From Marsupella aquatica (Eukaryota > Plantae > Marchantiophyta), in NCBI GenBank assembly GCA_973895155.1, contig OZ316891.1:21566513-21630512 (forward strand): a DNA stretch of 64,000 nt, written 5' to 3'. The translations under genes and the position numbers were made by a program. Positions 13,916-51,082 of this stretch are shown here, piece by piece. Each line of letters begins with the position of its first letter. The first letter of the stretch is position 1. The notes under the pieces are model-generated. The model saw only the letters and a list, made by a program, of their open reading frames with translations. It searched no databases and was not told the DNA's origin.

Positions 13916-15459
13916 TGGAAGCTTTTTTAATTTTCTTCAATGCTATGTCGAGGTCTCTGCTGCTCTTCCGGCTCGTGTTGATGTGGGATGATGCCACAGC
14001 TGCCTAGGTTGTGTGGACATTGATTAAACAATCTTCTCCTCGGAGGTACAGTACTATTTGGTTTTTGGTGGCGACGGATTTCGGAACAATTTAGAAGGGA
14101 CTGGCTTCAATTGTCACCCAATAGAATGGTTCCGGGTAATCATCTGTCTCTGCCAACAAGCCTTGATTTGAGAGCGCGATGATGAAATTCTTCACAAAAT
14201 TACTGGAAGCAAGCACAATGTTGACCTCCCTTCCATTGATTCTTTGGCTTGCTCAGAAGCACGTCATTCTCTGGAGACTAGAGCAGGGTAGCAAGGACCC
14301 CGGGCAAGGACAAGAGCTGTCTCTTAATCGTGCAGCCATCATGCACAATGGAGCGAATTACGACATTTTCTAAAGCCTGAACGAAGCACGGAAGAAAAAT
14401 GCACGACTTGCAACAAAAGTTGGCACATTGGAGGAATCAACAGTAAGAAGAGGCTAAAGCTGAAACGAACAGCCAGAAAGCAGGTTTTAGCTCGAACCTG
14501 TGATCGAAACCTGTCACTCCTTAAAGCTTCTTTCACAATTGCCAATGCCGCAGATCTCTCCTTTGTTTTTTGTCAGGTTTCTGTGCTTCTCTTGCAATAA
14601 TTGCAGGAATCCAAAAGCAGATTGTATCCGTCATCCTCTGAGCTCGGAGTTCTGTGCCGGACATGGAGGATATAGCAAAACCTCATTCGCTCACTCGCAA
14701 ATGACTCTACAGCTGAAGTGAGCCCTTTCTTCTTTAGTCACTATCCTCGATTACTCCCTGAAAAACATTCCAGCCAGAGCCCTCCGAATAAGAATTTCTT
14801 GACCTACTCGCACCTTATCCCGCAACGAACTCCTCTGCTCTCCTCTCTAATATACGGGAGCCATTCAACACAGAAACGATTCTTTGACTAGGCTTGACTG
14901 GAAAATCTTTGATGAGGAAAGCTTTCTTTGACTTGACTTGAATTGACTCAATTCGAACTCAAAAGCAGGTCGTCGAGATGAGCTTGAGTTCACCTGCGCC
15001 AATTCTCCGACATTTGGCCGAAAATTGTCCGACATCATGTCCAGCTGCATGTGTTCTTTACTAGTATTATTGTTTTGTGGAATCATTTGAGCGAACTGCT
15101 CTTTCTTTCCAGTGCTGGCCCCACTACACTGCTTTCGGCGCTTTGACTCTCGTCGAGCGCGGGCTTTGTCTCACAAGCTAGCCCATAGTGATATTTTCAA
15201 GCCCTCTTAGAGCATATCCAGAGCTACTCGGTTGGTCTATTGTAAGAAATTTGTGAATGACTAGAATTGGTTGAAGGCCCTTGTCAACAGAGAGAGTGAT
15301 AAACCTTCTGAGCAGCTCAATAATAATGCCCAAACTAGCCCGGATAGTATTCTGATTCTCTTGCCCGTCTCATTTCCATGAAAACAATTTATCACACCAA
15401 ACTAGCCCAGGTACTATTCCAATTCTCTTGCCTCTCTCATTTTCATGAAAACTACACAT

Positions 15460-15856
15460 CAAGTGTGATGAAACATAGGATCACTTTATTGGTTTTAGAT
15501 GAAGATTTAAAAAAGTTTGTAAACTAATTTTAGGATATTTTAATCTAATTTTGAGATATATAAGAAAGGATAGAGTTTTTTAAACCAATTCCAAGAACAT
15601 TTCAGATTAGTAGGGGTAAAAAAATTCCAACAAACCAAACTCTTTTTCTAAGTTTTAGGGTGTGCCAACTCTAAAGCTGTAGTAGTAAAGGGGGCTCCAT
15701 ATAGGGTCCTAGTAACTGCATTTCACATATGAGATGTACCACATCACTCCATACCACGATAAATATTCTTATTTTCTTTAAATTAATGAGTGCACATCGT
15801 ATATTACCACATTTCATGTATGATTATCGGCAAGCTCCATATAGTGAGACCCCAAG
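15460..15856 (-). mobile_element. Diverged relative of MITE family A
   Basis: Ends CATATAGTGAGACCCCAAG (15838-15856), matching the family terminus. 15470-15620 aligns loosely with 50480-50650. Confidence 0.5.
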
Positions 15857-16619: not shown

Positions 16620-17985
16620 CACCTGCATCTTCAGTGTCTAGAAGTAACACTTTTATCCTTGTAGTACATGTTGCTCTTGAAAAGGCAACCTACAATTGAC
16701 CATGACTGAAAACCAACTTAGAAAGTTACAATCCTACATGTTCTTAAGTGTCTTATTAATAGTCATGGCATATGCCACGTACTCAAACCGGGAATTGGAC
16801 TCTTCGCAACATGAAAGGAAGTCTCTCATCTAATGTCAATGGAATATGTGGTATGAACGTTATGCTCTTTGCATGTTTGCTTGCAAGAACCCATAGCCCC
16901 TCTATGACACAACTATTGATTGTACGTACTATGAGTCGTGTCTAGTTAAATAATCATGTAGTGAAGTCAACATTACGTAAAAGAATAACAGCGCATCCAA
17001 CTCTAAGTACCAGCTTGTGTGGAGACAAACCTATGGGTGTGAGCATATTCAAGAACTCAGTAGGGTAAAAATCAAGTCTTTCCAATTGATGTGGGCAATC
17101 CATACTTAAGAAGGTGTGCGCATCTCTTGCGAGCCCTTCAAATATTTGAACTATTGATCTCTGGTGCCTCCTCATTCGTTGGCGCCAATATTGTTCTCTT
17201 GCTTAGGACCTTGTCATCAATAGTTTCCAACGATGGATAAATTGCACATTGAATCAAGGAGTCAGACAATTTATCAACAATGTTCTCCACCATGGATGGT
17301 GAGACCATAATCATGTTATTTAACGCTCCTTGCTTTGGCAAATTATCACCCCCAAGTTGAAGCCAGGAGCCATTCTTGAAAAGTCTGGTTCCCAAACTCA
17401 ATTGACGTGGATGTAACATGCGCACACATATTCTTTGTCAGCTTGAGCGTTTTCACATAGTGCCAAATATGAGATTTCTTCATTCAAGCATCCTCCCACA
17501 ATCTGTGCATGGCTTGTTCTTGCCTTCACCGGCAACACTTGTTGAAAGTCCCCTACAAATGCAACCACCAATCCCCAAACTTTTGGTTGTTTTCTCTTAT
17601 GTCCCAAAGTGTCCTGTCAAGCACCTCCATAGCATGTCGAGAACCATAGGTGCTTCATCCCACATAATGAAAGTTGTCTTTCGCAATAATTCAGCAAGCT
17701 CCGTTACTTTGCTTTTTCACGTTGCATAGTGATTGAGCATCGGATTTAGAGGAAGCTTAAATCTTAATGTGTTGTGCAACCTCCATCCAACAACAAACTT
17801 GCAATTCCAGAAGAGGCCACAGCCAATGCTACGTCCCCATCAGCTCGCATCCTATGTAGAAGGACATTCTCCACAAAGGTCTTCCCCGTCCCTCCTGGCC
17901 CCTCTATGAAGAATGTGGAAGCCTCATGACCCCAAACCACCTCCAACATTGCAGTGTAAGCAGTACATTGGCCAACATTCAATAG
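16620..17985 (-). pseudogene. Helitron PIF1-like helicase (frameshifted)
   Basis: FFIEGPGGTGKTF (Walker A), VASSGIASLLLDGG, WDEAPM, GDFQQVLPV, RTILAPTN, YPTEFLN..PHKLVLRVGCAVILLRN, AMTINK, FSHGQL. Confidence 0.93.
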
Positions 17986-18166
17986 AGCGGACGCCTCAGA
18001 AAGCGTCCCATCGGTCCCGCTTCGCGAAATCAGTCCACAATGCTGGACGCTTCAGAAAGCGTCTCAAAATTTTCCAAACATAATCTTTTAATCTACTATT
18101 CTAAGCCCTTCCATACTAGTATTTCTTACAGATATGAAATATACCTATCCCAGCCCTCCACTCAAA

Positions 18167-21100
18167 CTACGACATGTCCTCATGCGCGGAATAGAAGTGA
18201 TAGGGCTTTAATCTAAAGCCATTAATTCTAGTGTCTAAGGGGGATCCATCTAAAGTGGTTAAGGATACAGAACCATTAGGCCATATGTTCTCAATTCGAT
18301 AAGGGCCGATCCAATGGGTATGTAATTTACCCGGGAAAAGCATGTAGCGGGAATCAAAAACTAACACTAAATCATTATTAGCTAGCTTAACCTGTTTAAG
18401 CTTTTTATCATAAGAGTGTTTCCGGTTTGCTTGGACTACAGCAGTATGTTCTAAGGCTAAAAGTCTATTTTCTTCTAATTTCATAATATCAACAAACCGA
18501 CTCTCGATACTTGCTTCAGGGGTGAATCTCTCAGGAATAAGTAAGCGCTCAGTAGGAATGGAAAACTCAATAGGGATAATACTATCAACCCCATAAGTTA
18601 AATAAAATGGGGTTCTAAGGGTGGTAATCTTTTCAGCAGTACGGTAAGCCCAAAGCGCAGAGTGCAATTTTACATCCCAGTCAGTCTTGTGAGATTCCAC
18701 CATCTTATTCAGAATCTTGCCCATAATGCCATTAGCTCTCTCCGTTAAGCCATTAGCTCGGGGGTTGTAAGGAGTAGTTTTGCGATGCTTGATAAGATAT
18801 ATGTCAGTAATTAACTCAATAGTTGAGTTAAGAAAATGTAGACCCCTATCGCTGACCAACTCCAAAGGACACCCGAACCGAGTAATAATATGCTCAAAGA
18901 GAAAAGCAGCCGCTGTTGTAGCATCATTCTTGCGAGTGGCTTTAGCCTCCACCTATTTGGTGGCATAATCAGTGGCCAGAATAATGTATTTGCTACGACT
19001 TTTCCTAGCGGCTGGTGAAATTGGGCCTACAAAATCAATACCCCATTTCTCAAAGGGGGCCAAAGGAAGGATGGGAGTGAGTGGCCATTTAGAAGATGCA
19101 GTGGGTTTGCCTACTCGTTGGCATGGATCACAGGTTTTAATAAAATTGTAGGTGTCCTTGTGCATTGTGGGCCACCAATATCCGGCATCTTGAATTTTCT
19201 TAACAGTGGTGGTAACTGCATAGTGTCCACCTGTCTCACCAGAATGTAAGGCTGCAATTACCTGTGGAATTTCTCTCATCTCAAGGCAACGCCGTAACCT
19301 TTGATCAGGGCCTTGCTTAAATAAGGTGCCTTTGATAATTGTATAAGGACCTACCTTATGTGCAAAAACAGCCCTCTCCTCAGCATTAAGTCCTTCTGGA
19401 AAGACCCCACACAGCAACATCTTCACAATATCAAAATATTTCGAGGACTCGCCTTCAATGTGCCAAAGGTGCTCATCCGGAAAGTCGTCAGACAGGTTGT
19501 GGTCATTCTCTGTACCTGGAAGTCTAGACAAGAAGTCGGCATTCTCATGGTGTTTCCCTGGACGGACTTGCACCTCGTAATCAAATTCCTGAAGCAGGAG
19601 GACCCATCTAGCCACCCTCCCCGACAGGTCAACTTGATTAACCAGGTATTTCAAAGAATGATGGTCCGTGTGAAAGATGATCTGATATCCAAGAAGATAA
19701 TGACGAAACTTTTTGCAGGCAAAAACAATGGCTAAGGCTTCTCTTTCGGTAACTGTATAGTTTTTCTCAGCAGCACTCATCTGCCTACTGGCATAATAAA
19801 TGGGATGATCCCTAATGTCATCATCCTTTTGACTCAAGTTAGCTCCGATGCAGAAAGCAGATGAGTCAATGAAAACATGAAACTTCCTACTCCAATCTGG
19901 TGGGGAGAGAATGGGCGCAGTCACAAGGCGGTCCTTTAGTGTTTGAAAAGCTTGCTGTCTTTCTTCATTCCAAACATAAGGTTCATTTTGTTTGAGCAAT
20001 TTGGTCAGAGGCATAGCAATATCGGCATGTTTATGAATGAATCTGCGATAATACCCGACATGCCCTAAGAAGGCACGGAGTTGCTTCAAATCCGTCGGAG
20101 GTTGAAGTTCCATGATCACCCGGACCTTTTCTTTGTCCACCTCTATGCCACGCTGAGAAATGACATGGCCGAGCAAGATACCTTCCTGCATTCCGATGAA
20201 GCACTTCTCGGGGTGTAAGCACAATTGAGCTTCCCGACACTTCTGGAAAGTCTTATCGAGGTGCATTAAATGGTCAGCCGCCGATCCATACACACAGAAA
20301 TCATCGATGAAGATCTCCATGAAGTGCCGAAGGTACTCCTGAAAAATAATCATCATGATACGCTGAAAAGTGCCTAGGGCATTACACAACCCAAATGGCA
20401 TCATTGCATACGCATATGTACCCCAATCTGTTGTGAACGTGGTCTTGTCCCGATCCTCCTTTCGAATGGAAACCTGGTTGTACCCAGAGTATCCGTCCAG
20501 AAAAGTATACAACTCATGCAATGCGACCTGATCAAGCACTAGATCTATGAAGGGTAAGGGATAATGGTCCTTCCTGGTGGCTGCATTCAATTTCCGATAG
20601 TCCTGACACACGCGGATTTTTGTCTTTCCATCAGGTCCCGCCTTCTTGGGTACAATGACAATGGGGGATACCCATTCACTACTCAAGACGGGGTAGATGA
20701 AACCAGCAGCAGTCAACTTATCCAGCTCCTCCTTCACAAGGACAGAGTACTTGGGGTTCAAACGGTACTGCCTTTGACGGACTGGCACTGCCCCTTCCAT
20801 CAAGTCTATCCGATGCTCTCCCAGATGAGGGTGGATGCCCTTCAAATCTGAATGACTCCATGCAAAAACATCCTTGTACTGGGTCAACAACTTAATTTAC
20901 AAGTCCCGCAACTCACCCTGGATATGCTTTCCTATATTAAGGAACTTGCCAGGTTCAATCTCAACTTTTTGACAAGCCTTAGGGTCCACTATACCATCCG
21001 TTAGGCCTGCTGGCCTAAGCTCCAAATCACCAACATCAGACTCACTGATTTCCGGAGAGGGAGGGTGTTTTCCATTACCGGAGGATACGCCATGCATTTG

Positions 21101-23698
21101 CTGATCTGAGAATTGTTTCCCTGTATCATGGCCGACTCCTTGTAAGTTTGCTTTCTCCCCTTCCGGTGGAAATTGTCAAAAAGGGTCCTCAGAAGCTAAT
21201 CCAGTCTCCACAACTGGATCAGATAGGTAAACCTCCAAATAGCGTACCTCCTCCAACTCAAACTCCAATGGCTCCAGAATCAGGTTGGAATCCGAAAAGT
21301 CTGACGTATACCCGTCGTCAGTTTGCGTCTCGCCCTTATGATCCTCAGTAGCCCAACTCACCACCACCTTGGGTTTACCAAAAGACATCTCTTGAGCTTT
21401 CCAATTTACCTGCACTTGGGCTTTATACAACCAGGGGCGGCCTAACAAGACTGGAAAGCTGGAAGGTACCTCTGGACTTATTATCACATATTCCAAAGTA
21501 AATGGAACACCAGCAATCAGAGTATCTACCTTACTTAATTTTCCCGCGGGAACAACTCGAGATTGGTCCGCCATCCGCAGGATCTTGGGTGTTGGTTCAA
21601 ACTTAGTAAATCCAAGATTAAATGCAGTTTGCTGAGTCATGAGGTTGACGCTGGAACCACCATCCACTGGTACTCTCCTCACAACACATCCTTGAATTTG
21701 TACGTCCAGCTCTGGTGGTCCCTTATCCTCCCATTCCAAACGTAATACATCCACCTCTGGCAACTTACGCCGCCTTCGCTTTCCTGCCAACAATCCTCTC
21801 AATTGGCGTCTATAAACCGGGTTGTCTTGCAACAACTCACCAATGGTGATATGAGCAAGATGGCCCTTCACGTCTTCTACAATATCATATCCCTATTGCT
21901 TTAACACAGGTCGTTCGGGCTCCTTCACCACTGGCTTCTGAATTGAATGCGAGGTGTGATCTTTAACTAGTTCCTCTAATTGAGCTTTTACTTCTGAAGA
22001 AATGTCAGGTAAAAAATATTTGGGATCATAGCGATCATAAGCTGGGTCCTGATCCTTGGGTAGGCCTTCCTCAAATGGAGCTCGTTCCTTCGGCTTAGGT
22101 CCCTTCTTTTGGTGCTTCGCTACTGCTCGTTTCTCCTCTTTCCGCTTGGAACGAGTAGTTGCATAGGTATCCGTTAGAACTTTGTCCCGATCCTGAACTC
22201 GAGCATTAGGCATGCCCACCACCCCTGGCTTCACCAAGTGATCCACTAACACATCAGGAACAATTCCGGCCAGTGGTTGAGCAAACGTGGAGTGGCCTAT
22301 CACTTCCACTCTGTTCACATCCCCATGGTGGATCATTCCACAATGCTCAACCTCTTCAGAGTACACCATCCTCACTTTAGCCTCTGGTCTGATTGTCTCC
22401 TTGACAGGCTCTTGAGCAAAGCGAACCATCATTTTTGTTTTAGGCGGATTTGGACATTCCACAGGCAAGTGCCCTTCCTTGCCACAATTTCCACATATAG
22501 GGGTGTATCCCTCTTCTCTCTTCGGATATGGACATTGCGGTGAGTAGTGGTCCGGCTGACCGCAATTCCAACAGGATCCTTTTTGCCGTGGAGCTCCTCT
22601 AGGGGGGTATCCTCCTGGAGGTCCCATAGGCGGCCTGGGAACAGGTCTGTTGAAGGCAGGTTTTGGCGGTACCCAATTATTCATTGGTGGAGGGGCAGGT
22701 GGGAAATACTGACCTCCTGGTGTTGCCTGAACTGCATATGCCGGCTCGTATTCGTAATCTTCTACCTCCTCCGGTCCTTCCAAGTAATTTACTGCCATAC
22801 GCCAATTTGGGCACTCCGTCGGATAGTGCCCTTGCTGATTACAATGGGTACACCACACGTTTGTCCTCATGGTTGGTGGTAATCTTCGCACAGGTTTCAC
22901 CGCAGCAATATGTACATTCAGCTTAGATAGTTTCCCGGTTATTTCCTCCATCATGCGATCCATTTTTTTCTGAGTAGAAGTCTTAGGCTCTACCTTCGAG
23001 GTTGACTTCTTCTTTTTGGAGGCGGACTGTTCCGAATCTGAACTAGAACTAGAGCTAGCGCTTGCACTAGTGCTTGAATCCGTACTCTCATCGTCTTCAC
23101 TACTGCTGCTGTCACTATCGTCCTTCTCCGAATCAGATTTAGACTTTGATTTTTTCTTCTTTTTCCTCTTATCTTTCTTCAAGTCTTTCCTCACTCGCTT
23201 TTTCTCAGAAATTTCAGAATCCACATACTTCTGTGCTGATTCCTGAACTTCCTCCAAAGTAGTACCACCTTCACGCCTGACATATCGAGCAATTCGTGAC
23301 GGCAATCCGTTGATAAACCAATCCTTCACAGTAGACTTAGATGTGGCTGGATTATATTGGTCCACCAAATCCAACAGTTTATCCGCATATTTCCTCACAG
23401 ACCCATGTTTCTTCATGTGTAAATGAGAGATCCTAGCAAAAGCTCGAGCGGCAGACCCCTCCTCTTTGTACTTAGCCAAGAAGGCAGCCTTCAACTTACC
23501 CCAGTCATGTTTATCTGGAAAGCGATCATACCACTTTTGAGCTCTCTTCTTCATCAGTCCACCAAATAAATTAGCCTTTTTCCGCATCTTGGCTTTGTCC
23601 ATTTGAAGCTGCAGCAGCTTCAAATTCCTTCAAATAGGCTTCTGCATCCTCTTTAGATGATCCAAAGAATCTATCATATCTCACATTGTTACGAGCCA
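18167..23698 (-). pseudogene. Gag-Pol polyprotein (Gag with 3 CCHC knuckles, aspartic protease, RT, RNase H, integrase), disrupted
   Basis: MARNNVRYDRFFGS gag start; three CX2CX4HX4C knuckles; VDGGSSVN protease; LDGYSGYNQ and FIDDF RT; FIDSSAFCIG RNase H; HHCC plus WGIDF..SDRGLHF..NGLTERANG integrase. One frameshift at ~23580 and in-frame stops at 21893, 21176, 20897 and 18953 (YATK*VEA, where W is expected). Confidence 0.95.
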
Positions 23699-24237
23699 TT
23701 ATAGTAGGACTTAGATTAGGGATGGGTAAGGCAGATCGGATGGCAAACGGATTAGTCCAAGTTTGAGGACTTAATACAATAGAACTACTAGATTCTGAAC
23801 TACTGCCGGAGCTCTTCTCGCCTGAAGACGACCCTTCTGATGAATTAAATGCTGTGAAGCCTTCAAGTTCTTCTAGAGTTGGATTCTGTTGTAAAATCCC
23901 TTTGACATCTGATGGTTTCCGTGAATGCTGTGGTGGACCAATCAACTTGGGTCCGGATCGCAAATTCACATATAAGGGTCTACTGGGTGCAGGATTTTCC
24001 AGAGTCCCTTGGGTTACCCTAGTCTGAATGGAGGTTACCTTCCTTGTCACACTTCCCGGTAAAGGGAATTCTGATGCTTGAAAATCAGACAGGAGGTCTC
24101 GATTCCACAGCCTTGCTCGAGGATTCTGATTTATAAGAAGCTTTCCTCCATTTCTTTTTGATTTGGCGAGCTTCCTCCGACATACCTCATTCTTAGCAAT
24201 AGTAAAACTTCTCTCCCTAGTTAATTGTCTTGCTACA

Positions 24238-24591
24238 TTACTGAATCCAGGTCGTACTCAGAAGTATTGAAGGAAGATGTGATTCATGAGGCCCCATTAT
24301 GAAGAAATCCAGGTGGTACAGGCGATCACCAATTTGAATAGGTACTACCCTCATCTCCCCCACAGGTTTAATCAATTGGCCATTGATCCAGAACTGTGTG
24401 TAAGTTGGTAAAATTGGTGCGAGAGCCAGATTCTGAGCCAAACGAATAGAAAGCAAATTAATTCGAGAGCCCCTGTCTATTGAAACTTCCTTAATCAGGT
24501 ATCCCGCCAATCTCACCTGAGATTCAAAAGAACTTTGGATGGCTCTTGTGAACACATTGGAGGGATGCATGGTAGCTTTGATTACAAGCAT
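24238..24591 (-). other. Extra retropepsin-like domain upstream of gag
   Basis: LAGYLIKEVSIDRGSRINLL..KPVGEMRVVPIQIG..LDFFIM..SILLSTTWIQ aligns end to end with the element's own protease IQGCVVRRVPVDGGSSVNLM..VPAGKLSKVDTLIAG..LEYVII..PVLLGRPWLY. Confidence 0.7.
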
Positions 24592-25524
24592 CTTTCAATG
24601 CCACTCAAATTTTGAGAAAACACCCACTACAGATGGAAGCGGTCACCTTGGCTTTTCCCAAGGGGCATGCCTCTTGCACCTTGTGTCGAGGGATTCGAAC
24701 AGGTATGTCCATTCAACTCTTGGGAATCCAAAGTGTCTGGAAACCCATTTAATGCCTTGGAGATCTTCTCCTGACCCCTCTTCATATCCTTCTTTGGCTA
24801 GGTTTACCGCAGCACTTCCTATCTCATCCTCCTATTGGGCCCCATTTCACCTTGAAGCATTGTACTAGCCAATTCCGAAATAGAAATTACAGTATATCTC
24901 TCCTGAGTAATCCTACCATTTAATCTCAGCATTACCAAATGCAAATTCAAACCTTCCCACCATATTATGGACAGCCAATGAACTCCCCTTCTACCCCTCA
25001 CACTTAACACCCATGTTTGCACATATTGATTATGCAAATTCCTAACTCGTAGGGAGCCTAATGATCTAATGGGTGGGGGCATTCTTCAAGAATCCTCCAC
25101 CCCTAAGGTTGGCTTACAGCCTAAGTATCTCAATAATTTTTAGCATTGGCTCTAACACTTATCCTAAACAAATTGATCTCTTCAATAAAAAGGGTAAAAC
25201 TCTTTCCAAACTTCGCCTATAATCCACTGATTATCTTAATCTCGATTCCTACACACAAAAATCTCTTTCTTCACATGGAAATCAAGCACCCTTGAGGCTA
25301 TCCTTTTTGGCCTTAATTTCCTTCCTTCTCCTTCTCCTATTAAGGAGGGCTTCCTCCCTCATCATCTCCCGGAAAGCTTCCGGGGCATTTGCTAGGGTGA
25401 AGGGTCGAACCTCCAGCACCTGAATTGGCCATTATCCTGAATCTTCCATTAAGTAACTCCTTCTGACCAATTCAACCTCCTCGGTTGGCATTCACTGCCT
25501 TGATATCAATCCATTCCATACTGT

Positions 25525-25542
25525 TCCCCGGCAGCGGCGCCA
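25525..25542 (-). promoter_or_regulatory. Primer binding site (tRNA-Asp type)
   Basis: Minus strand TGGCGCCGCTGCCGGGGA, 9 nt inside the LTR end; one mismatch from the Athila-type PBS TGGCGCCGTTGCCGGGGA. Confidence 0.9.
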
Positions 25543-25551
25543 AAAATCATA

Positions 25552-27295
25552 TGTCGTATAGCCAGAAGAACAAAAAGGAACACTTTTTACATAAAGACTC
25601 GGAATTCGATCCCTTTAAGAACAGATTTGGAAAGAATTGAATGAATTTATCTCTCTGAGTAATCTAAAGCTCTCAGCACATAGATTTCTTGTTTCTCACT
25701 AAAAGATCAAATAAACAAAACACCAAAGTAAATAAACTTCTGTCTTATGAGTCAAGAGAGAGTCAATTATGGTCTGAAAACTCTGATTAGCTATTGCCAC
25801 TCCTTCAAAAAGGACTATGGTCTTAGAATAGACATAAAACAAATCTCATAACTCACTAATTTCTCTTCTGACTAAATAAAATTGCATGATAATGAATTTC
25901 CAATTTGCTAAACAAGTACTGCTCTGGTTACAAATGTAATGATATGACTTAAGATGCCGGCAACATGGTTTGACATCAGTGATACGCAATTCCGTCAAAC
26001 ACTAAATCATATTCCATAAACAAAGTAACGGTACTGAATACTCTAAGAATCAAACTTTACTTCTCACATATCAAACAACAACTCTTGAATTAGCTAGCGA
26101 ATCTTGACCCTTCAAGCAAGCCTAGCAGTGAATTCAATGTAAGTCACAGAAGTTTGTAACTGAATTCAAGTATCAAGAAATTTCTTGAATTCATAAATTC
26201 AAACATAAGTTTTACTTCCATACAAGACTTCTCTTGTTAAAATGGAAGGAGGGAAACTAACAGAAGTCTGATTGGAATTGTCCCCCCTTCCTTCCGAATG
26301 GAAAAACCATGAGGTTTTATAAGTAAAGGTTCCCTTAACTGAAAAGGCATGACTTTTCAAACCTCAAATATCTAAAAGACAATCCTAAAAGAAATAAAGA
26401 AATGCATTGGAGACTTAGTGGACGCTTTGTAGAGCGTCGGTGCTTTCCGGTAAAACTAATAAACAGTGGTGTTAATCTAATTTTAACTTCTAAACTAAAA
26501 GTCGGAATGAGCTGAGACTTTTCTAGAGTACTCTACTACATATAATCTCTATGCTGACAAAGTTTCAGACTTTTCTGAGATCTCTAAGTGCCTCAAATAA
26601 ATCGGTAAAAGTGGCACGGTGTTATAAAAGTGCGAAAACTGAAACTTTTTCTAAGTGTTGGGAACATAGTGGACGCTTCAGAAAGCGTCCAAAACTACAA
26701 AGGACTTTTATGGACGCTTCAGAAAGCGTCGGCTGAATTTTGAGGTTTTGGTCGCGGCGTCCGTCTTCCGGCCTTCAGGTGGGACGCTTCAGAAAGCGGC
26801 GAAGTCTGGCTTGGCGGACGCTTCAGAAAGCGTCGATTCTGCTTTGTCTTCGAACACGGCCGAACAGTCGAGGCGTCACTTCTCATGTGGACGCTTCAGA
26901 AAGCGTCTCATCGGACTTTGGGGTTAGCGGACGCTTCAGAAAGCGTCTTAAAGCGTCCGGTGTCTGGTTCGAATAGACGTTTCACGAAGCGTCTTCTGTT
27001 CCGTGGTATCGGTGAAGGACGGCTCAAAAAGCGTCGTGGTTAAGGGGGTCGCATCTGGTTGGCAGCACACATGGACGCCTCTGCTGTCTTGAGGTTTATT
27101 GGCTTTGTAACTGGGGACGCTTCAGAAAGCGTCCTTAGTTAGACTGAAGTGAGTTAACCGCCAAATTGAAAGTAGACGCTTCAGAAAGCGTCGTTTTTGC
27201 TCAAAAAGTTTGAAACAATTCAGATTTTTCTCTTATGGTCGTGTTTCAGCAAAAGTCTCCTTTCCACAGCTCCTGCTTAGCCAATTGTTGTAACA
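25552..27295 (-). repeat. 5' LTR (~1.74 kb) of the Athila-like element
   Basis: Minus strand TGTTACAAC..ATACGACA, followed by the PBS. Candidate TATAAAA at ~26315-26321. Helitron coding sequence resumes right after 27295. Confidence 0.8.
26420..27192. repeat. Array of palindromic GGACGCTTCAGAAAGCGTC motifs in the LTR
   Basis: Copies at ~26420, 26671, 26712, 26782, 26816, 26889, 26929, 26975, 27017, 27115 and 27174, with unrelated spacers; two more at ~17989 and ~18045. Confidence 0.92.
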
Positions 27296-30484: not shown

Positions 30485-32073
30485 TAATTAGTTCGTGGAC
30501 CCCCACCTGTTTTGATTGAGATTGAACAGTAGATAATTATTGATATAGATAAATGTGTTATACAGTATTGAGATTGAAAAGTAGGGAGATATGTATTGGA
30601 CAATGGGTGATGTAGAAAAATTGTGTTATGCAATGTGTGACGGTGAAGATATCTTTATTGGGACTACTCAATTTTTTTGCATGATACATCATAGTGTTCT
30701 GAAAAATAAAATTCTGTACGACATGGAAACAACTATCATTTTTTTCCCACTGAATCACATGGCATTGAATTTCCGCTTGGATGTAGTGGCTTGAGTGGGT
30801 TCTTCCGTTGTTGTTTGGGCAGGGACATCCGATAGCAGGCCCTGGTCGCTGCTCCTCCTCAGTCTGTCGATCAGGGACTGAGATTGCTGATGTGTCAGCC
30901 CTACCAGCATATCAAGTGACATCTTAAAACCATGTCTCAATCTGGTCAGTTGCTCTAGATGAGCTCCCTTTGTGACTTGGATCGTGTACTGTCCTTATGA
31001 ATTGTTCGTGATTCTTCCTTGGTTTAGTGATTGGTTTCTCCTTCAAACTAATTCCTGAATTCCTTCTTCTTTCTGCTCGATCAGCATATAGTCTCTTCGA
31101 TTCCTTTCGGTGATTTTCGTTGTTCCCTTTTGCCTCGGTTCTTACTGGCTTGCTCTTTGGAGTCTCCGGGAGTTGGCGCTCATTCAATTCACGAGTGACA
31201 ATATTCTCAATTCTCCATCAGTTTCCACAATGTGATTGATCGTTTTCAATTTTCTCATTCTGTTTTGGTGTTGTCCTTATGTTATTCCTTTGTGAATTTG
31301 GACTGTTTCGAGAAGCACGAGCACATCATTTCTGATGCAGAGGAAGTTGACAGAAGTTTCTCTAATTCCATTCCCTACTGTTCATGTACTGGTGTGAACC
31401 AACCATGTTACAAGTGGGGTAATGGAGGATGGTAGTCCTCTTGCTGCACCATTATGATCTCCATGTACCCCCTTCCAATGAATCCGAAGAAGCGAAGTTC
31501 AAGGCTGGTTGGACGCAAAATGAGCGTTGGTGCCTTTGTTTATAGCTCATATCTTTGTAAGTGGAACGTAGTCACGTAGACGAGGCCCTTATTGGACCCT
31601 GCTAAGCTTGCTTCTCTTTCATTTTCTCGTGCCTCATGCGTTGGACAATCTAACAGTAGCGAGAGACATCACCGAGTTAGGAACTGCAATGATGACGCCA
31701 TGGAAAGGAGCTCTGAGTGATCCAACATAGAATCATGTCCACTTCTTCCTTCGTGGCAACAGAAGGTCGAGAAAATTGTCACGATTACTTTGTCATCAGA
31801 TCAAATTGCCGAGAGAGATTTAGTTATTATTCAATTGAAACACAATTCAGAATGCGGGTGGGCAGCGGTTACTCAGGATAAAAAAATGGAAGGTGGGCCT
31901 CCTAATAATTGAACAGTTTGTTACCTAGGCTAAATAAAATAACTTTTTTTCAAATATTTTCCTCATTTTACCAAAATCATGCCACAGACATGAATGTTGA
32001 AGCAATTTTATTTTGTAAACCAATCCGTACCTGTCTCAAATTTTGGAAGGGACCTCTAGTGGGGTCCTAATTA
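30485..32073. mobile_element. Probable TIR element (~1.6 kb) with gene-like interior; right part duplicated at 1-525
   Basis: Left TAATTAGTTCGTGGACCCCCAC and right GTGGGGTCCTAATTAG are loosely inverted and share the GGACCCC core with the 1885-3368 element. Confidence 0.5.
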
Positions 32074-39600: not shown

Positions 39601-42600
39601 CTGTTAAAAAAATACATTGTTAGTAACCAAATTATCACTTTTGTCCAAAAAACTTCCCTTACTAACTCTGTCACCACTTCTATCTTAAAGATACTTTGTG
39701 TGTGACCAAAGTACTTTAATTGAGAGATTTGTTTCATTCTCCCAATACTATTTACATAGTTACTCTAACCATTTTTCATAGAGTCTAATAATAAAAGTAA
39801 AATATGGACTACATTTAGGTCCTTATATACTTATCTTATGTGGCCTTCATGGTAGATGACACTTTGAGTAGATAGAGTGCTTCACATTTTACTCATACCA
39901 CCTCAAGTAGTTTGCTCGATGATAAACATCAAATGAACTTACAAAACAAGTCCTGGTTGGACTGAGCACGTGAACATGGGGTCTCCAATGGACTTTATAT
40001 ACGTGACAGTAAAATGAAGTTACACAAATGCATGATCGTATGCATAAGGGTTGTGTGGATGGACAGTGAGTTTCTGTCAACTATAATTATTTAGGAATCA
40101 GTTAATGAGGCCAAATTTGCAATCTAACCTACTCAAATGGCAATTTTGGCACTCAGGTCCACAGCCAATGCCTCGCCCATTGCTTTTTAGGCCTAGCAAA
40201 AACATTACTAGATGGACTCCATCCACAAGTAGTCCAGTCCCTTACTGCACTTTTAATGCGACGCAGTATGAGGCCGTCTCAAACCCAGACCTTAACAAGT
40301 TAAGGCCCTTCCGTACCCCAAGTGTTACGGGAGCTCCCAAAGGAACCCCACGGGCAAAGTCCGACTTAAGTCATTACCTTAACCATAGTCCGTTAATATT
40401 GGCGCAAATACTATGTTGGACTGTAGTGCACAACGTCCAACTAGTCCAACTATTTGACTGTGAGCATAACCTGCAATTTGTGAGCTCTAGAGTGCCATCT
40501 TTTCAAGCAAGAAGTCAGTAATATTGTTTGACCCTTGCAATTAAGGTTGCGGGTGCATGCAAATTTTTCCTGAATTTCTGATTGATCATCGTCGTGACAT
40601 TGTCATTGTATGGTTTGTGCTTTGGGATCAATGAGTGAGGGTGGCAACCTTGTATCAAATGCCAGTATTGTCTAACTCAGTGATCTCTGCCGACATGGAC
40701 AGGTTCTGAAAGAGGTCATTGACATGGACTCCTTCCTCATTGTATATCGAAGACCTCATCGACATTGACATTACCAAACAACTGAACAGGGTCACCTTTT
40801 TGGGGTTTAGGGTTTACAATTTATAATTTAGGAAGTGACTGTTTTATGTGACCGACATCATGTATCCGTTGTCCTGGTGGGTTTAGGGTTTAGTTTGGAC
40901 AGGGTCACATTAGGAGGGTAGAGCATCGGCCTGTTTTCAGATTAGGCATGTTGCTTTGTTAGAAACTATGGATCTTGGTGCACTCAGATGTGAGCTACGT
41001 ACTGATCGATAGGACACAACAAAAGCTTAGATTGGAATTGCATACGCTTTTGGCTACTAAGGAACAAGACCGTGCTTGCATTTGAAATCCTCGTTATCCC
41101 CTACAATGTCACCCTCTAGTGAGTAACTTGAATCCAACATTGCCTGATGATCTTGTGGACTTGCACATCTGGCCCCGGATTCGATCAATGCTCAAAGGTG
41201 TCGCGGTTTTGGATCCAATTCAGGATTGTCATCATCTAGTCTTTTCCTGACAGTGCAATCAATTGCTCATATTAATAGGAAATGGAGACATTTGATAACA
41301 AACTCCATACTATGGGGTGCAATGATTACAATTTAATATTTTGTCATAGTCTAAGATGGGCTAGAGTGACCCCCTTGTTCTTTCAAGATTTAGTGAGAGC
41401 GTTCCCATCGATCGATGTTTGGAATCGGTTGTCTCAAAGTATCTTAAATAAAAGGATCGATTCGTGGTTATTATGTGCTTTGGAGAAAGTGGACTGCTAC
41501 CTCTCAATCTATGGTGTTGAGCAAGAGCAAGTAGAGTCTTGGAAAAGGACTTGTGTTGATAACTAGTACATTGAACACAAGTAAGACATGATAATGGTCG
41601 TCCTGTCAATCGTGACCATTTTTAGCTACATTGACTAAGCACAAATGTGAAAGTTGTTTGCCCACATCAAATGCCATCTCAGATACCAGCTGATGTTATT
41701 GGCTTGCATTAGTTTTTTTTATAAAATTAGATTGATTTAGTGTCACCTAATCCTAATTTTAGCATAATAGAACAATTTTGTACAATAAATTTTGAATAAT
41801 AAATTTTGAATAATAAAAATTTTGACGTCATTTGAGCATAATCTTAGTGAGGTGTACGTTCTTGTTATGTCAGCAACCTCTTTGACATACAAAGTAGTAC
41901 ACAATTCTCCTTGTCTTGGAGAGGTCATTTAGCATCACTTTGTCCTTCAATTTTGCCATGATCAACCAATTTTGTATGATAATTTATGAATAATAAAATA
42001 TTTGATATCATCAATACCTATGAAACAATCTCTCCTCGTGAAGTCAGCGAGGTTCTGTGTGTCGTATGCTATCAAAAGCAAATATCATCGAATATATGCT
42101 AAAAACTCAGTGTTCGTTCCCGTGGAAGAACAAGAATGGGATGAAAAGTGTTTGAGTGGTTTAGAGATGGTACTCAACATCTATAAGAAAAATAGAATCT
42201 TAACCAAAACACAAGGAATTAATAAAATAGGAACAAAGTGATATTTGCTGGACAATAGAATCTTAGAGCTTTTAGAGGTATAGTTTAACAATATTTAACT
42301 CCGTCACCATGTCTTAAGAAAGAGCTATAGCATTATTTGAGACGTTGATAAGTCAAACATAACCTTGCTATAACTGCTCTCTAGGTTTCTATCATAAATC
42401 TAAGTTTAAGAAGTGTCTATGCTCACAAAACCCAAGATAAGTTTCGGATTGTGTATATAGTAGTGTGTCATTAAAATGCCGGCAACATGTTTCCTTCTTC
42501 AGCGATGCGCAATTCCAAAGGAAAAACTAATGCATATTCAGTATACCACAATGGTACTTCAAATCCGTGAATTAAGAATGTCGCTACTTCTTAATCATAT

Positions 42601-43094
42601 AGATTTCTATTTCTTGATTTCATGCAATACTTATCTTCCAAAGATAAGTCCTTCATGTAAATACATAAATGGACAACAAATGTTGTAGTTTGGATTAGGC
42701 ACCGACCAACGGATCTTCTAATACATTCCACAAACTGTATTTTTATGGGTTTTACTTCTTACGGTAATTGCAACATGCATTACCATACGAAGGAGGGGTA
42801 GACTCCTAGCACAAGTAATCAAATTCCAAGGTATGCAAATCTTCCTTGCAAATTTGCATTACACATACAAGGGACAAAACTCCAAGATGAAGAGATGCAA
42901 ATAACTATCCACATTGTCTCAAAATGAGACTGGTATCACAATAAGTACATGAGATCGCCCACGGGCTAAGGAGAATGAAGAGACATGCCTCTTCATTTCC
43001 TAAGTCTAAACTAAGTAAAGTAAAAGTCAACTTTGACTAAGGGATAGTCAAATGGTCAAAACTAAGTAAAAGTCTACAAAATAAAATACTAATC

Positions 43095-44933
43095 TCATAT
43101 TGTAATAGGAGGAGGGTCGACTACAAGTAGAGGGAGGCGAGCTACATAACCAAGGGCTATCTTCCCTTTGGTCCTCTGTCCCTTCAAATACTGTCGACAG
43201 AAAAGGTCCTCACGGTAACGAATCAAATGAGGCTCACTGGTCTTCCGGATGGGATGTCCATCCGGTCCGATCCAAACAAAGTAATCTGATGGCCATGGAA
43301 TGTCTGGAGCTGGAAGAGGGAAAGGTGCTATGACCTTTCTACAATGATAAACCCAACTCCAAAGGTCAGGAGTCTCAATCGTGGGTAATCTCAGCTTGTC
43401 GATAGGTAGCCATAGAATATCACGAGAAATCGGAACCATGTCGTAGGTGTGTGGAAAAGGAAAAGACTCACGACCAAACATAAGTGGAGGTAAAGGAGGT
43501 GCAAGAGGAGTGTGTGCGTCGATGAGTGACATAATCATCCTATCAAACTGGGCGGGAAAGACAAAAAGAGGCTCAATGTCGGCAACAGAAGAGACAATAG
43601 GAGGCTGAGACATCAAAGGAGTAGGAGCTATAAATGGTACATTGGGAGGCTCTATATTCTCAGGCTCAGGCTCAATCTCGGGAATAGGCTCAGGAATAGG
43701 TTCATCTCCTTCCATTGTAGGAGAGGAAAATGAATCATCAAGGGGTGATAGGGTGGTATCCTCAATAGAGGAAAATGGATCTGGAGGGGGTACCGGTGAA
43801 GGGGGTAAAGGAGATGGAGGGTGCTCAGGTGAAAATGTAGGAGGGATAGGGGAAAGAATGGGATCAGGTAGAGGGGGTGTAGGTGAGGATGGAGGAGGGA
43901 GTGAAGGGTCAGCAATAGGTAGCTCCGGCTCATCCACATCCATAGGGTGATCAGGCTGTGGTGAAGGTGCAAGGGGTGAAACATGAGGGGGTGGGACGGT
44001 ATGAGACTCGGAAAGCAAAGCACGAATACAGTCAAGTAACTGTAGAGGGGTACAACTCAAGAGTCTAGTGGCCTCATCTACCAAATACTGGTTGAAACCA
44101 GCCACACTAGCTAGTCGCTCAGCATCACCAACAAAATCAGTCCATGACGGATAAGAAGTGGAAGCAACAAAAGAGGGAGAAGTCATCCCTGGTAGATCTG
44201 GTGTTGTCATCTGCTCCACTGGAGGGGGTCTCGGAGATGTCGTCGGTGGTGGAGTCAACTCTCTCGCTAACTTTGGCTGAGGTAGCTCAAAGTGTCTCGC
44301 TCTCCTCCTCCAATCGCTCAGCTCCACTGGTAACAAGCAGCCTCTCGAAAAGTAAATGTGCGCCAAGTAGGGTGTCAGATAGGTATCACCGGTAGTAGAC
44401 AAGACAACCACTTGCTTGGCGATCACCTCCGAAAGAGCTAAGGCCCAGTTGATCCTCCTCTTGCCGGTCCATGATACAATGATAGAGCTGGTCAAGTAAA
44501 CCATAGCCCTGGTGGGTTTGGTCGGATGAAAGATAGGTACAAGGAATCGGAGTAGATGAGCTAACTCCCGGTTCCTGCACTGATCAATCTTCCAACCAGA
44601 CCTTCGGTCCCTGGTACCTCTAAAATAGGGGACAGTCAAGTCCCCTCCAACAGAGATAAGTCTCTCTCCCTCCTGGCTCAACTGGTACACCTCAGAAATA
44701 ACGGTGGTGGTACACACATCAGCTGAACCTCTAGTAGAACTCCGAAAAGCACCAGCTCGGGGTGGACAAAGAAAATCGGCAATGATGGACCCATGCACCA
44801 TATCCCAAGGAAGAAAAAGTAAGGAACTCAAGCCCATCTCTACCAGGTTACTAAGGAGTCTAAAGTAAGCCTTAGGACCTGGGGGTAAGGTCACCCTAAT
44901 GGCCTTACTAATTGGTAAGCTTCTGGTGGCCAT
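43095..44933 (-). CDS. Uncharacterised 612-aa TE-associated protein (globular N-terminal ~220 aa, Pro/acidic-rich middle, small C-terminal domain)
   Basis: Uninterrupted ATG-to-TGA ORF with no gag/pol motifs. Segment GWKIDQCRNRELAHLLRFLVPIFHPTKPTR..INWALAL..TYLTPYLAHIY is reminiscent of retrotransposon accessory ORFs (recognition from memory, not searched). Confidence 0.8.
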   Translation of the reverse strand: MATRSLPISKAIRVTLPPGPKAYFRLLSNLVEMGLSSLLFLPWDMVHGSIIADFLCPPRAGAFRSSTRGSADVCTTTVISEVYQLSQEGERLISVGGDLTVPYFRGTRDRRSGWKIDQCRNRELAHLLRFLVPIFHPTKPTRAMVYLTSSIIVSWTGKRRINWALALSEVIAKQVVVLSTTGDTYLTPYLAHIYFSRGCLLPVELSDWRRRARHFELPQPKLARELTPPPTTSPRPPPVEQMTTPDLPGMTSPSFVASTSYPSWTDFVGDAERLASVAGFNQYLVDEATRLLSCTPLQLLDCIRALLSESHTVPPPHVSPLAPSPQPDHPMDVDEPELPIADPSLPPPSSPTPPLPDPILSPIPPTFSPEHPPSPLPPSPVPPPDPFSSIEDTTLSPLDDSFSSPTMEGDEPIPEPIPEIEPEPENIEPPNVPFIAPTPLMSQPPIVSSVADIEPLFVFPAQFDRMIMSLIDAHTPLAPPLPPLMFGRESFPFPHTYDMVPISRDILWLPIDKLRLPTIETPDLWSWVYHCRKVIAPFPLPAPDIPWPSDYFVWIGPDGHPIRKTSEPHLIRYREDLFCRQYLKGQRTKGKIALGYVARLPLLVVDPPPITI

Positions 44934-45289
44934 AGCTCAGAAAATCTGAGAAGGCTCTAGAGCTCTCCTCCTAAAACCGGTTAAGCATGGAGGCTCAAGA
45001 ATGAAATCTCAGGGATCTAAGGTAGCTGCGCTACTATGGGAGAAGGAATGAACTGAAAAGAGATCAAAATGAAGGAGCTCTGATCAGGTGAAGCTCTCGA
45101 AATTGCAATTTCTTCAATTCCAAGAAATTAGAGAGCATCGATGACCCAATACTCCGCAACGTCTCATCAATGGCAGTTCAGAATTGGGGTGAACATTCTC
45201 TAGGCAACTGCGCTCCTATAGCAATTGAAATGAGCTCGAATGGTGGTCTATCGAGTGAGCACTAAGGGTCGAAGCTCGCGCCCTACTAC

Positions 45290-45680
45290 CGGCCGCCATG
45301 GACGTCCCTCAAAGAAAACTGGAGAAAAAGGTTTGGGCCGGCGCGGACGTCACATTAGGTTGTGGCGGGGTGGACGTCCCGGACGTCCCTACGTGGAGGC
45401 CGTCCAAGACATCCTCAAGTTTTTCATGCGGGCCGGCGCGGAAGGAGTTGGTTGTCCTTGGCAAAAAGTGGGTGCCGTCCTGGCCGTCCCTGTGTAGAAG
45501 CCGTCCAAGCCGGCACCGTCTTTGCCGTCTTTGTGAGGAGGCCGTCCAGGACGGCGCCGTCCCGGCCATCCCTGCGAGGAGGCCGTCCAGGACGTCACCT
45601 CATTTTTGAAGCTCCTTTCAACTTCTTGCCGTCTTGACGTCTAACATGTGAAAACCAGAGTAGCCTTGACGTCTTCCAAT
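45290..45680. repeat. CpG-rich palindrome cluster upstream of the 612-aa ORF
   Basis: Repeated GGACGTCC, GCCGTCCAGGACGGC, GAGGCCGTCCA and TTGACGTC motifs. Confidence 0.85.
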
Positions 45681-46254
45681 GGTATCCTTACCCATTTGAG
45701 CTTATACTAACTTAAATTTGCTTAAAGGGCCTTATAAAAACTTTAAAAATTTAAAAATTTATGGTTTTGATACTTTAACTCTCTTTTTTAGAATAATCAC
45801 CTAATTACACTGTGAGATGAGTCTTTGAAAGGGTCGTGTTATATCTACTTATGTGACAAGCACCAACCGTCCGTTGGACACTATTGTTGAAATTAATTTT
45901 GTGGGGCGCAGACAATAATAATCCGCAAAATCTTAGAGACCCTCTCTAAGATGGATAATATATAGGAGACCCCGTAATATATCAAAAACCTCATCCCATA
46001 ATATATTGGAGACCTGTTTGACAATGTTATTTTTGTTCATCTGCTCCTAGCAATAAAACCATAAGTCTTGGTCAAAATGTTTGAGGTCAATCATCCATAC
46101 ATTGTTTACGCTTTGGTTGCAACATCATGGAGGTCTCCACTTTACTCTATTCAATTGTTCAGCATGGAAGGATCGATGCGCAGAGGTGTTATCATGAGAA
46201 GTGCTCGACATGGCTTGAGAAGTTTAGGATGACCATTAGTGAGCAAAAATCGAT

Positions 46255-46540
46255 CTTGGGGGTCTCACTATATGGGGACCTCCTCATCACCTATGATGTT
46301 TTTAGGCCTTGGACCCCCTAGAATGTAAGAATTTATTTTTTGTATTTCAACCCCTATACAGTTGGAATATTCCAAATTTTGGATTAAAAAGACCCAAATG
46401 TTCTTATAAATCTCCAAATTGAATTTAAAAGACCCTATTGTTCTTCTACAAAAATTCTTAAGTCTTCCCTTAGAACCAATAAAATGACCCTATTTTTGTC
46501 GCACGTGATATGTCATTTTTGTGCAAGTGAAACCCCCAAA
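46255..46540 (+). mobile_element. MITE, family A
   Basis: CTTGGGGGTCTCAC..GTGAAACCCCCAAA; TSD AAATCGAT/AAATTGAT (1 mismatch). Confidence 0.88.
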
Positions 46541-50444: not shown

Positions 50445-50740
50445 CTCGGGGGTTTCACTTCCACAAAAATGGCATATCACATGCGACAAAGGATAGGGTC
50501 ATTTTATTGATTGTAAGGGAAGACTTAAGAATTTTTGTAGAAGAACAATAGGGTCTTTTAAATTCAATTTTGAGACTTATAAGAACATTAGGGCCTTTTT
50601 AATCCAATTTTTGGAATATTCCAAGAATATTCCAACTTTATAGGGGTTAAAAAATAATTTTTTTTCTTACATTTTAGGGGGTCCAAGGCCTAAAAACGTC
50701 GCAGGTGATGGGGAGGTCCCCATGTAGTGAGACCCCCGAG
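50445..50740 (-). mobile_element. MITE, family A, inserted in the protease active-site motif
   Basis: TIRs CTCGGGGGTTTCAC / GTGAGACCCCCGAG; perfect TSD CCAATAAT (50437-50444 and 50741-50748). Confidence 0.95.
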
Positions 50741-50781
50741 CCAATAATACTTGCTTTGGCTGGTATATTGCTCCAGAAGGC

Positions 50782-51082
50782 CTCGGGCCGGGGGTCTCAG
50801 CATATGGATGTCTCCCCATCACCTACGACGTTTTTAGGCCTTGGACCCCCTAATATGTAAGAATTTTTTTATTTTTCAACCCCTATAAAGTTTAAATATT
50901 TCTTGGAATATTCCAAAAATCTGGTTATAAGGACCCTAATGTTCTTATAAGTCTCAAAATTGGATTTAATTGACCATATTGTTCTTCTCATAAAATTCTT
51001 AAGTCTTTCCTTCAAACAAATAAAATGACCCTATACTTTGTCGCATGTGATATGCCATTTTTGTGGAAGTCAAACCCCAAAG
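50782..51082 (+). mobile_element. MITE, family A, opposite orientation
   Basis: CTCGGGCCGGGGGTCTCA..GTCAAACCCCAAAG; perfect TSD CAGAAGGC (50774-50781 and 51083-51090). Confidence 0.93.

Follow-up and report, generated by a model that had tools for sequence, protein, structure and literature searches.

Within a window of 64,000 nucleotides (nt) of DNA from the liverwort Marsupella aquatica (contig OZ316891.1, positions 21,566,513 to 21,630,512; "the window" means this whole stretch), we analysed a repeated unit of 3750 nt on the minus strand that contains an open reading frame (ORF) of 612 codons and, upstream of it, an array of short GC-rich motifs (Table 1). We regard it as an even call that this unit is a solo long terminal repeat (LTR) from an Athila/Tat-like family of Ty3/gypsy elements present in high copy, and that it has a gene akin to VANC or the Plant Mobile Domain (PMD) which acts on its own array. 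VANC is a transposon protein that lifts the silencing of the DNA encoding it. The parts of this reading differ in strength. Sequence comparison makes it probable that the ORF lies inside the LTR of the family, and the structural model makes it likely that the N-terminal domain of the product is truly related in fold to VANC/PMD. That the protein would target its own array, to relieve silencing or to activate, we hold to be somewhat less likely than not.

A preliminary description of this DNA had reported TG...CA termini and a perfect CTGTG target-site duplication (TSD), and both were confirmed, the termini on the minus strand at the ends of 42060-45809 and the duplication on either side of it. 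Contigs from four of six public runs (two organisms, two studies; two small-share runs stood outside the set) were aligned to 41500-46300. An empty-site contig, present in two of the four runs, joined 42052 to 45813 with five letters between and was a net 3755 nt shorter, equal to the unit plus one copy of the duplication. This contig differed from the flanks by about 10%, and three of the five letters of its pentamer agreed with CTGTG, so that by its sequence the empty site is orthologous or paralogous and not an allele of the present copy. In run X2, possibly the source of the assembly, two exact junction contigs, one at each end, reached 29 nt into the unit and stopped there, a pattern that copies with common termini but different flanks would produce. 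The summed contig depth also dropped at both unit ends.

The last 560 nt of the unit aligned with an equal length at the end of the LTR at 25552, part of a neighbouring gypsy element and adjacent to that element's primer-binding site (PBS). Identity was 327 of 526 columns (62%), and the alignment scored 300, where 300 shuffles averaged 170 and peaked at 216 (z 12.5); a separate search gave E 1e-8 for this terminal homology. The homology ended upstream of about 42620 and the terminal octamer was identical in both. As had been described, the two share the 3' end ATACGACA, and the motif ATGCCGGCAACATG was present at 42476 and 25954 only. A further copy of ATACGACA at 38977 had no related LTR around it and was set aside. 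The marks of a solo LTR seen in the unit were TG...CA ends with a TSD in the 4-6-bp range, termini shared by copies in different flanks, and homology to a PBS-adjacent LTR, in the 3' part only.

Motif, repeat and Pfam checks bore out the earlier statement that the unit holds no PBS, internal direct repeat or gag/pol. Neither a PBS-like TGGCGCC nor TGGTATCA was found within 42060-45809, and the Pfam scan of the unit showed no gag or pol domain. Comparison of the first 500 with the last 1100 nt showed no terminal direct repeat (score 114, shuffle mean 114.6), and no terminal inverted repeat extended beyond 3 nt. No purine run of at least 10 was present in 42621-43094, hence no polypurine tract (PPT)-like sequence follows the ORF. 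A possible assignment to the Athila clade draws on the neighbour only, whose PBS begins with TGGCGCC 9 nt after the LTR and which has about 100 amino acids (aa) between RNase H (RH) and integrase with no second RH match in the Pfam scan.

The position of the ORF relative to the LTR was measured by contig depth and collinearity. Summed contig depth, a crude measure and not a copy number, was in the thousands in every bin of the unit (hundreds to about 1400 in X2) against 0-449 in two left-flank bins. The ratio of ORF depth to 3'-part depth was 1.08, 1.40, 1.01 and 1.13 in the four runs. An internal ORF is disfavoured by these values, since two LTRs per element plus solo LTRs predict a ratio of 0.5 or less. 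The ratio of ORF depth to 5'-part depth was 1.07, 1.12, 1.76 and 2.79. A diverged copy with 62 differences spanned 42886-43355, across the stop codon and into the 3' part, and no joint among the best 15 of 45 skipped the ORF or returned to the LTR start. In the present copy and the aligned contigs, which showed no PPT or second LTR start, the ORF ran into the LTR 3' part and did not occupy the Athila 3'-ORF position between pol and the PPT or 3' LTR. The proposal of a solo LTR with the ORF inside it therefore stands on the exact empty site, family-wide depth and collinear diverged copies, but no full-length element was seen.

The intact sense-strand ORF between the array and the conserved 3' part was found as described, running from 44933 to 43095. 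In 500 block shuffles the longest frame had a median of 138 and a maximum of 272 aa, and none reached 612. The accompanying claim that all other transposable-element ORFs are broken was correct in that the gag-pol of the neighbour has in-frame stops, but open stretches of 578 and 647 codons remain in it. An open frame of 612 codons alone is thus weak evidence of present function, because the dead neighbour keeps stretches of that size. All four listed ORF indels of known length among copies (+12, -129, -129 and -39 nt) were multiples of three, although two of these in-frame indels may be one event, and outside the ORF six of the seven unit indels listed were not multiples of three (12 of 44 indels listed). 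As far as the aligned copies tell, the ORF is under coding constraint and belongs to a real gene family.

An exhaustive HMMER search with aa 1-228 returned 272 relatives at E<=0.001 and 97 at 1e-10. The word-indexed protein searches returned no relatives, which reflects low sensitivity and not absence, given the 272 found by the exhaustive search. Organism names were attached to five of 30 looked-up clusters, all of them the leafy liverwort Calypogeia fissa (among its proteins CAM6082980.1 and CAM6098715.1), and two of the 30 were labelled "hypothetical protein". The proteins with the N-terminal domain reached 800 aa in length, and it was close to their N-terminus, followed by tails of various kinds. 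The C-terminal domain was present in six of 155 relatives, two of them from one cluster, with a best E of 3e-32 and five at E 4e-17 or better; the motif of the three-helix unit was common to the P0002 cluster (4 of 155). On these alignments the ORF product is an old two-domain accessory protein of a conserved family. Contigs with long relatives were mostly 2.3-4.8 kb, about the size of the LTR, and were given no weight, as short contigs have many causes. A second architecture (P0011, P0017, P0027, P0042, P0047, P0061) combined the N-terminal domain and an acidic linker with a conserved coiled-coil-looking block in place of the C-terminal domain of the ORF.

AlphaFold modelling of the N-terminal region, which the preliminary description had proposed as a check, gave a confident model of aa 11-210 whose top structural match was VANC21. 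The input alignment had 95 rows, with all six C-terminal-domain relatives and mostly short N-terminal relatives, and left out most long relatives with other tails. The pLDDT score (predicted local distance difference test) exceeded 90 in most blocks of aa 11-210; the single-sequence model (pLDDT 31.6) was unusable. The match to 9LNK (VANC21 with target DNA) had Z 7.5 and an rmsd (root-mean-square deviation) of 4.3 over 199 aligned residues at 10% identity. It was the only match with Z>=5 among 48,161 solved chains, the next having 3.9. The sister entry 9LNJ had Z 7.3 (VIA) and stood first by template-modelling score and rmsd in the Foldseek list. The match carries weight, since it is isolated, covers most of the domain and concerns an accessory protein of plant transposons that is structurally tied to PMD. 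The earlier suggestion of a trans-acting or anti-silencing factor gains independent support from this predicted match.

Other searches with the protein returned little. The C-terminal domain, as modelled within the larger protein, had no fold match, and aa 455-612 no usable match in the ESM atlas. Sequence searches of the PDB gave nothing useful, with profile matches confined to the coiled-coil part of the alignment, and Rfam likewise gave nothing useful. The viral structure library showed no match at E<=0.001. No related loci were found in the viral contigs or metagenomes searched; one pattern match (L001) fell in GC-rich coding sequence of bacterial appearance and was regarded as a chance hit. 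In the ESM atlas 22 of 30 matches fell in the PF20167 set with a score of 0.91, a lead only. No transmembrane segment was present in the ORF (best 19-residue hydropathy 1.38), and an envelope-like role was rejected on that ground.

GGACG/CGTCC motifs occurred 16 times in 45290-45650 against a shuffle mean of 1.5, and none of 300 shuffles reached 16. The neighbour LTR had 14 against 1.3 expected (0 of 300 shuffles). The array of the unit was the densest such cluster in the window and that of the neighbour LTR the second. The earlier claim of a GGACG cluster near the 5' end as in the neighbour LTR held in that both were enriched, but only the GGACG/CGTCC core was common to them. The array of the unit consisted mostly of direct GACGGC/GACGTCC repeats and that of the neighbour of GGACGC-N8-GCGTCC inverted repeats, with no BLASTN match between the two.

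Several results weigh against the reading of a solo LTR with a VANC/PMD-like gene acting on its own array. Beside these termini no copy showed a full-length element, PBS or PPT. The depth of the ORF in organism B was 1.8-2.8 times that of the 5' part, an excess that could come from a fast-diverging array or from some relatives with the ORF in another, internal setting. A motif search detected neither a canonical TATAAA before the ORF nor an AATAAA anywhere in the unit, so the self-contained promoter-ORF-polyA cassette of the preliminary description stays a proposal. The neighbour LTR bears an array and a TATA motif with no ORF, so arrays need no linked gene and may be plain enhancers. The present ORF copy may be decaying, as its residue 74 is Cys, which is Trp in 81% of aligned relatives, and it differs from nearly all aligned contigs at many sites. 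The structural match is middling, since unrelated models often reach Z 7-8, and Foldseek gave 9LNJ an E of 1.4 (rank 3 by E-value, probability 0.28). A profile search against the PDB found no VANC chain at E<=10. Pfam had no match for the ORF, and only one of 151 related proteins touched PF20167 (Transposase_32), at E 0.005 and below the cut-off. The ESM atlas matches shared 159-165 of 256 features, where true family members typically share 170. A shared fold, moreover, demonstrates no function.

If the solo-LTR reading is right, the unit could have arisen when plus-strand priming directly after integrase made the usual block at the 3' end of the internal region, an array with an extra ORF, part of the LTR as its unique 3' region (U3). 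This origin is suggested by the layout of the neighbour, where a purine-rich tract begins 3 nt past the integrase stop and is succeeded by TGTAAG at 18130 and, 70 nt on, by an array, as if an LTR began immediately behind pol. The 5' end of the unit compared with this post-integrase stretch scored 57 (shuffle maximum 74), with only TGTAA in common. The gene would thereby have been copied into both LTRs, like mouse mammary tumour virus (MMTV) sag or human immunodeficiency virus nef. The promoter for its transcription would coincide with the array or follow it, and the 3' end would be formed in the conserved LTR 3' part. The factor would bind the GACGG/GGACG repeats and locally relieve silencing or activate, keeping LTR promoters open, an action modelled on that of VANC at the tandem motifs of VANDAL elements. 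Because gene and array are both in the LTR, the module would be doubled with each transposition and survive solo-LTR formation. LTR-LTR recombination, the main route by which hosts remove retrotransposons, would spare the gene and its target, and solo LTRs could then provide the factor in trans. The widest form of this idea, in which liverwort gypsy elements carry a VANC-like sequence-specific anti-silencing system wholly in the LTR and active solo LTRs reawaken the family in trans, is in our view possible and rather unlikely.

The strongest alternative, which we hold to be unlikely and still well worth weighing, keeps the ORF in the LTR with another accessory role (chromatin or integration-site tethering, a particle or RNA chaperone, or a decoy for host proteins) and takes the array as an enhancer for host factors. 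The array without an ORF in the neighbour LTR speaks for it, as do the quite different, often coiled-coil-looking tails of many relatives. Host PMD proteins, moreover, promote silencing and their molecular function is described as open (PMC5418596). It has to accommodate, however, that the sole structural match is to an anti-silencing protein bound to DNA in a sequence-specific way and that the motif array adjoins the gene, as in VANDAL elements; the lack of a transmembrane segment removes an envelope-like role from the list.

Alternatively, and with low probability, the LTRs of the family are shorter and its extra ORF is of the ordinary 3' kind, and the present copy is a double-deletion derivative in which the LTR array was joined to an internal array and then the PPT was lost together with the 3' LTR's 5' part. 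The normal place of plant extra ORFs in sense orientation is downstream of pol and before the 3' LTR (PMC7264820, PMC6317226), and the neighbour, with arrays both in the LTR and right behind integrase, would offer the substrate for such recombination. The ORF depth of organism B, above that of the 5' part, also fits. However, this account requires two deletions, and the ORF-skipping or back-to-LTR-start joints that it predicts were absent from the best 15 of 45. ORF depth should then be below that of the 3' part, whereas the ratios were 1.0-1.4, and diverged copies passed the ORF end unbroken. A non-autonomous DNA element (VANDAL/MULE-like or other) with a VANC-like gene would explain the match to a DNA-transposon protein and the lack of gag and pol, but is very improbable given the 5-bp duplication (Mutator-like element, or MULE, duplications are about 9 bp), the TG...CA ends, a terminal inverted repeat of at most 3 nt, and 560 nt of homology, with the same terminal octamer, to a PBS-adjacent gypsy LTR.

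Among the closest known systems, VANC of the VANDAL (Mutator-like) transposons is like the gene of the unit in predicted fold (199 residues), in having a short-motif non-coding array in the same element, and in pairing a conserved domain with a low-complexity region that varies. The targets of VANC are short motifs, tandemly repeated in non-coding DNA (PMC5735166); it resembles MAIN/PMD and is described as dicot-specific (PMC13547354). The carrier here, in contrast, is a probable liverwort LTR retrotransposon and identity is 10%; the array motif is unlike YAGTATTAY, and binding and demethylation would be by analogy. With LTR-type ends and a 5-bp duplication, the wrong carrier for a VANC, the ORF product is not a VANC. 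The PMD (PF10536) extra ORFs of Ogre/Tat and the host proteins MAIN/MAIL1 (PMC5418596, PMC6317226) offer a gypsy-borne accessory domain structurally linked to VANC, PMD-A being encoded by gypsy elements (PMC5418596). However, PF10536 matched none of the 151 proteins, and PMD ORFs are described in the internal region.

The Athila 3' extra ORF (PF03078/PF20167) is likewise a sense extra ORF of Athila/Tat-like gypsy elements, of which the present ORF is an ESM atlas look-alike through PF20167, a domain reported from sunflower Athila 14 ORF(+), a 3' extra ORF (PMC11728184). The ORF of the unit in a 3' LTR would also be downstream of pol. It differs in that LTR termini enclose it, no PPT-like tract follows and Pfam has no match. 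Compared with the Athila "env-like" ORF it has no transmembrane helix, and its own promoter region is likely to replace the splicing described for ATHILA ORF2 mRNA (PMC7197481). MMTV sag and primate lentiviral nef (PMC2664473) are long sense ORFs in the LTR 5' part, hence in both LTRs and solo LTRs, but the proteins are unrelated, the present element is a plant retrotransposon, and its LTR is nearly three times the 1.3 kb of MMTV. The rice elements Retrosat2, RIRE3 and RIRE8 (PMC3485330) have very long LTRs (>3 kb), many solo LTRs and an extra ORF; their ORF0, however, lies upstream of gag-pol and not in the LTR, and they belong to the chromovirus lineage.

The function of extra ORFs in plant retrotransposons is a long-open question, and the cited papers place such ORFs internally, with classes for the 5' and the 3' side of the polyprotein (PMC7264820, PMC6317226). 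In the literature searched, which covered few subscription papers, plant LTRs with a long ORF inside them were not reported. An extra ORF in the LTR alters the logic of solo LTRs, since deletion by the host would leave accessory genes intact. With a predicted VANC-like fold beside a defined array, one domain and one 360-nt array suffice as a test of sequence-specific anti-silencing in retrotransposons, and possibly give a new epigenetic effector programmable by motif in a plant lineage with a tractable model. If true, this would be the first such anti-silencing system in a retrotransposon, Athila/PMD-type extra ORFs would gain a function, and the VANC fold would date to early land plants.

Table 1. 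Coordinates in the window of the unit, its parts and the neighbouring LTR used for comparison.
Feature	Position	Strand	Remarks
Repeated unit, TGTAAT...ATACGACA	42060..45809	-	Likely solo LTR of an Athila/Tat-like Ty3/gypsy family
TSD CTGTG, left copy	42055..42059	.	From sequence; empty-site contig shorter by 3755 = 3750 + 5
TSD CTGTG, right copy	45810..45814	.	From sequence
AT-rich 5' end of unit	45651..45809	-	GC 0.28
GC-rich GACGGC/GACGTCC array	45290..45650	-	GC 0.61, CpG observed/expected 1.0, 33-41-nt direct repeats; candidate cis-target
Leader, array to ATG	44934..45289	-	356 nt; without TATA[AT]A
612-aa ORF	43095..44933	-	Sense to LTR
N-terminal domain, aa ~10-215	44289..44906	-	Confident model; predicted VANC/PMD-like fold
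Three-helix unit, aa ~264-310	44004..44144	-	pLDDT 80-90 for aa 281-310
Pro/acidic low-complexity linker, aa ~315-458	43560..43991	-	Predicted disordered; in-frame indels among copies
C-terminal domain, aa ~459-600	43134..43559	-	W.WVY..R...P..P..P...W...Y..W...DG; pLDDT 52-85
AT-rich region after ORF stop	42621..43094	-	Not homologous to neighbour LTR
Terminal part of unit	42060..42620	-	Homologous to end of neighbour's PBS-adjacent LTR; includes motif 42476-42489
Comparator, 3' part of neighbour gypsy LTR	25552..27244	-	Array 26420-27200, TATAAA at 26321, no ORF
Neighbour PBS	25525-25542	-	9 nt beyond LTR end; then gag-RT-RH-integrase

The neighbouring gypsy element (17982-27244, minus strand) appears circularly permuted. 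It begins inside the LTR array and runs in the order LTR 3' part, PBS, gag-pol, purine tract, TGTAAG and array, and then ends. It splits a Helitron helicase, the frame of which is kept on either side; there is an overlap of 4 nt (TGAA), and TG...CA ends are absent. This arrangement fits a one-LTR circle, or an array-to-array excision circle, inserted without integrase. An open stretch of 228 codons at 23574-24257 (minus strand), upstream of and overlapping the gag start in another frame, is likely a frameshifted gag start of this element. We take its TGGCGCC PBS to be of the tRNA-Asp type. The 9-nt spacer between LTR and PBS (25543-25551) is longer than the 5 bp given for Diaspora/Calypso; a PBS complementary to Asp tRNA is described 5 bp after the LTR (PMC1142308), and the REXdb survey used a window of 0-5 bp (PMC6317226). 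Elements with a 9-nt spacer could escape standard pipelines.

Elsewhere in the window, an intronless gene for a major facilitator transporter of 520 aa was present at 12353-13915 (minus strand; PF07690, E 1e-40) in an island of 51-55% GC. It presumably resembles the fungal allantoate-permease type, and acquisition by horizontal transfer is possible. A high-copy family resembling miniature inverted-repeat transposable elements occurred at 1396-1673, 15437-15626, 46255-46537 and 50448-51078 and was very deep in all four runs; the copy at 50448-51078 formed a near-perfect inverted pair of 630 nt. The segments 1-449 and 31612-32034 were a dispersed repeat pair with 86% identity.

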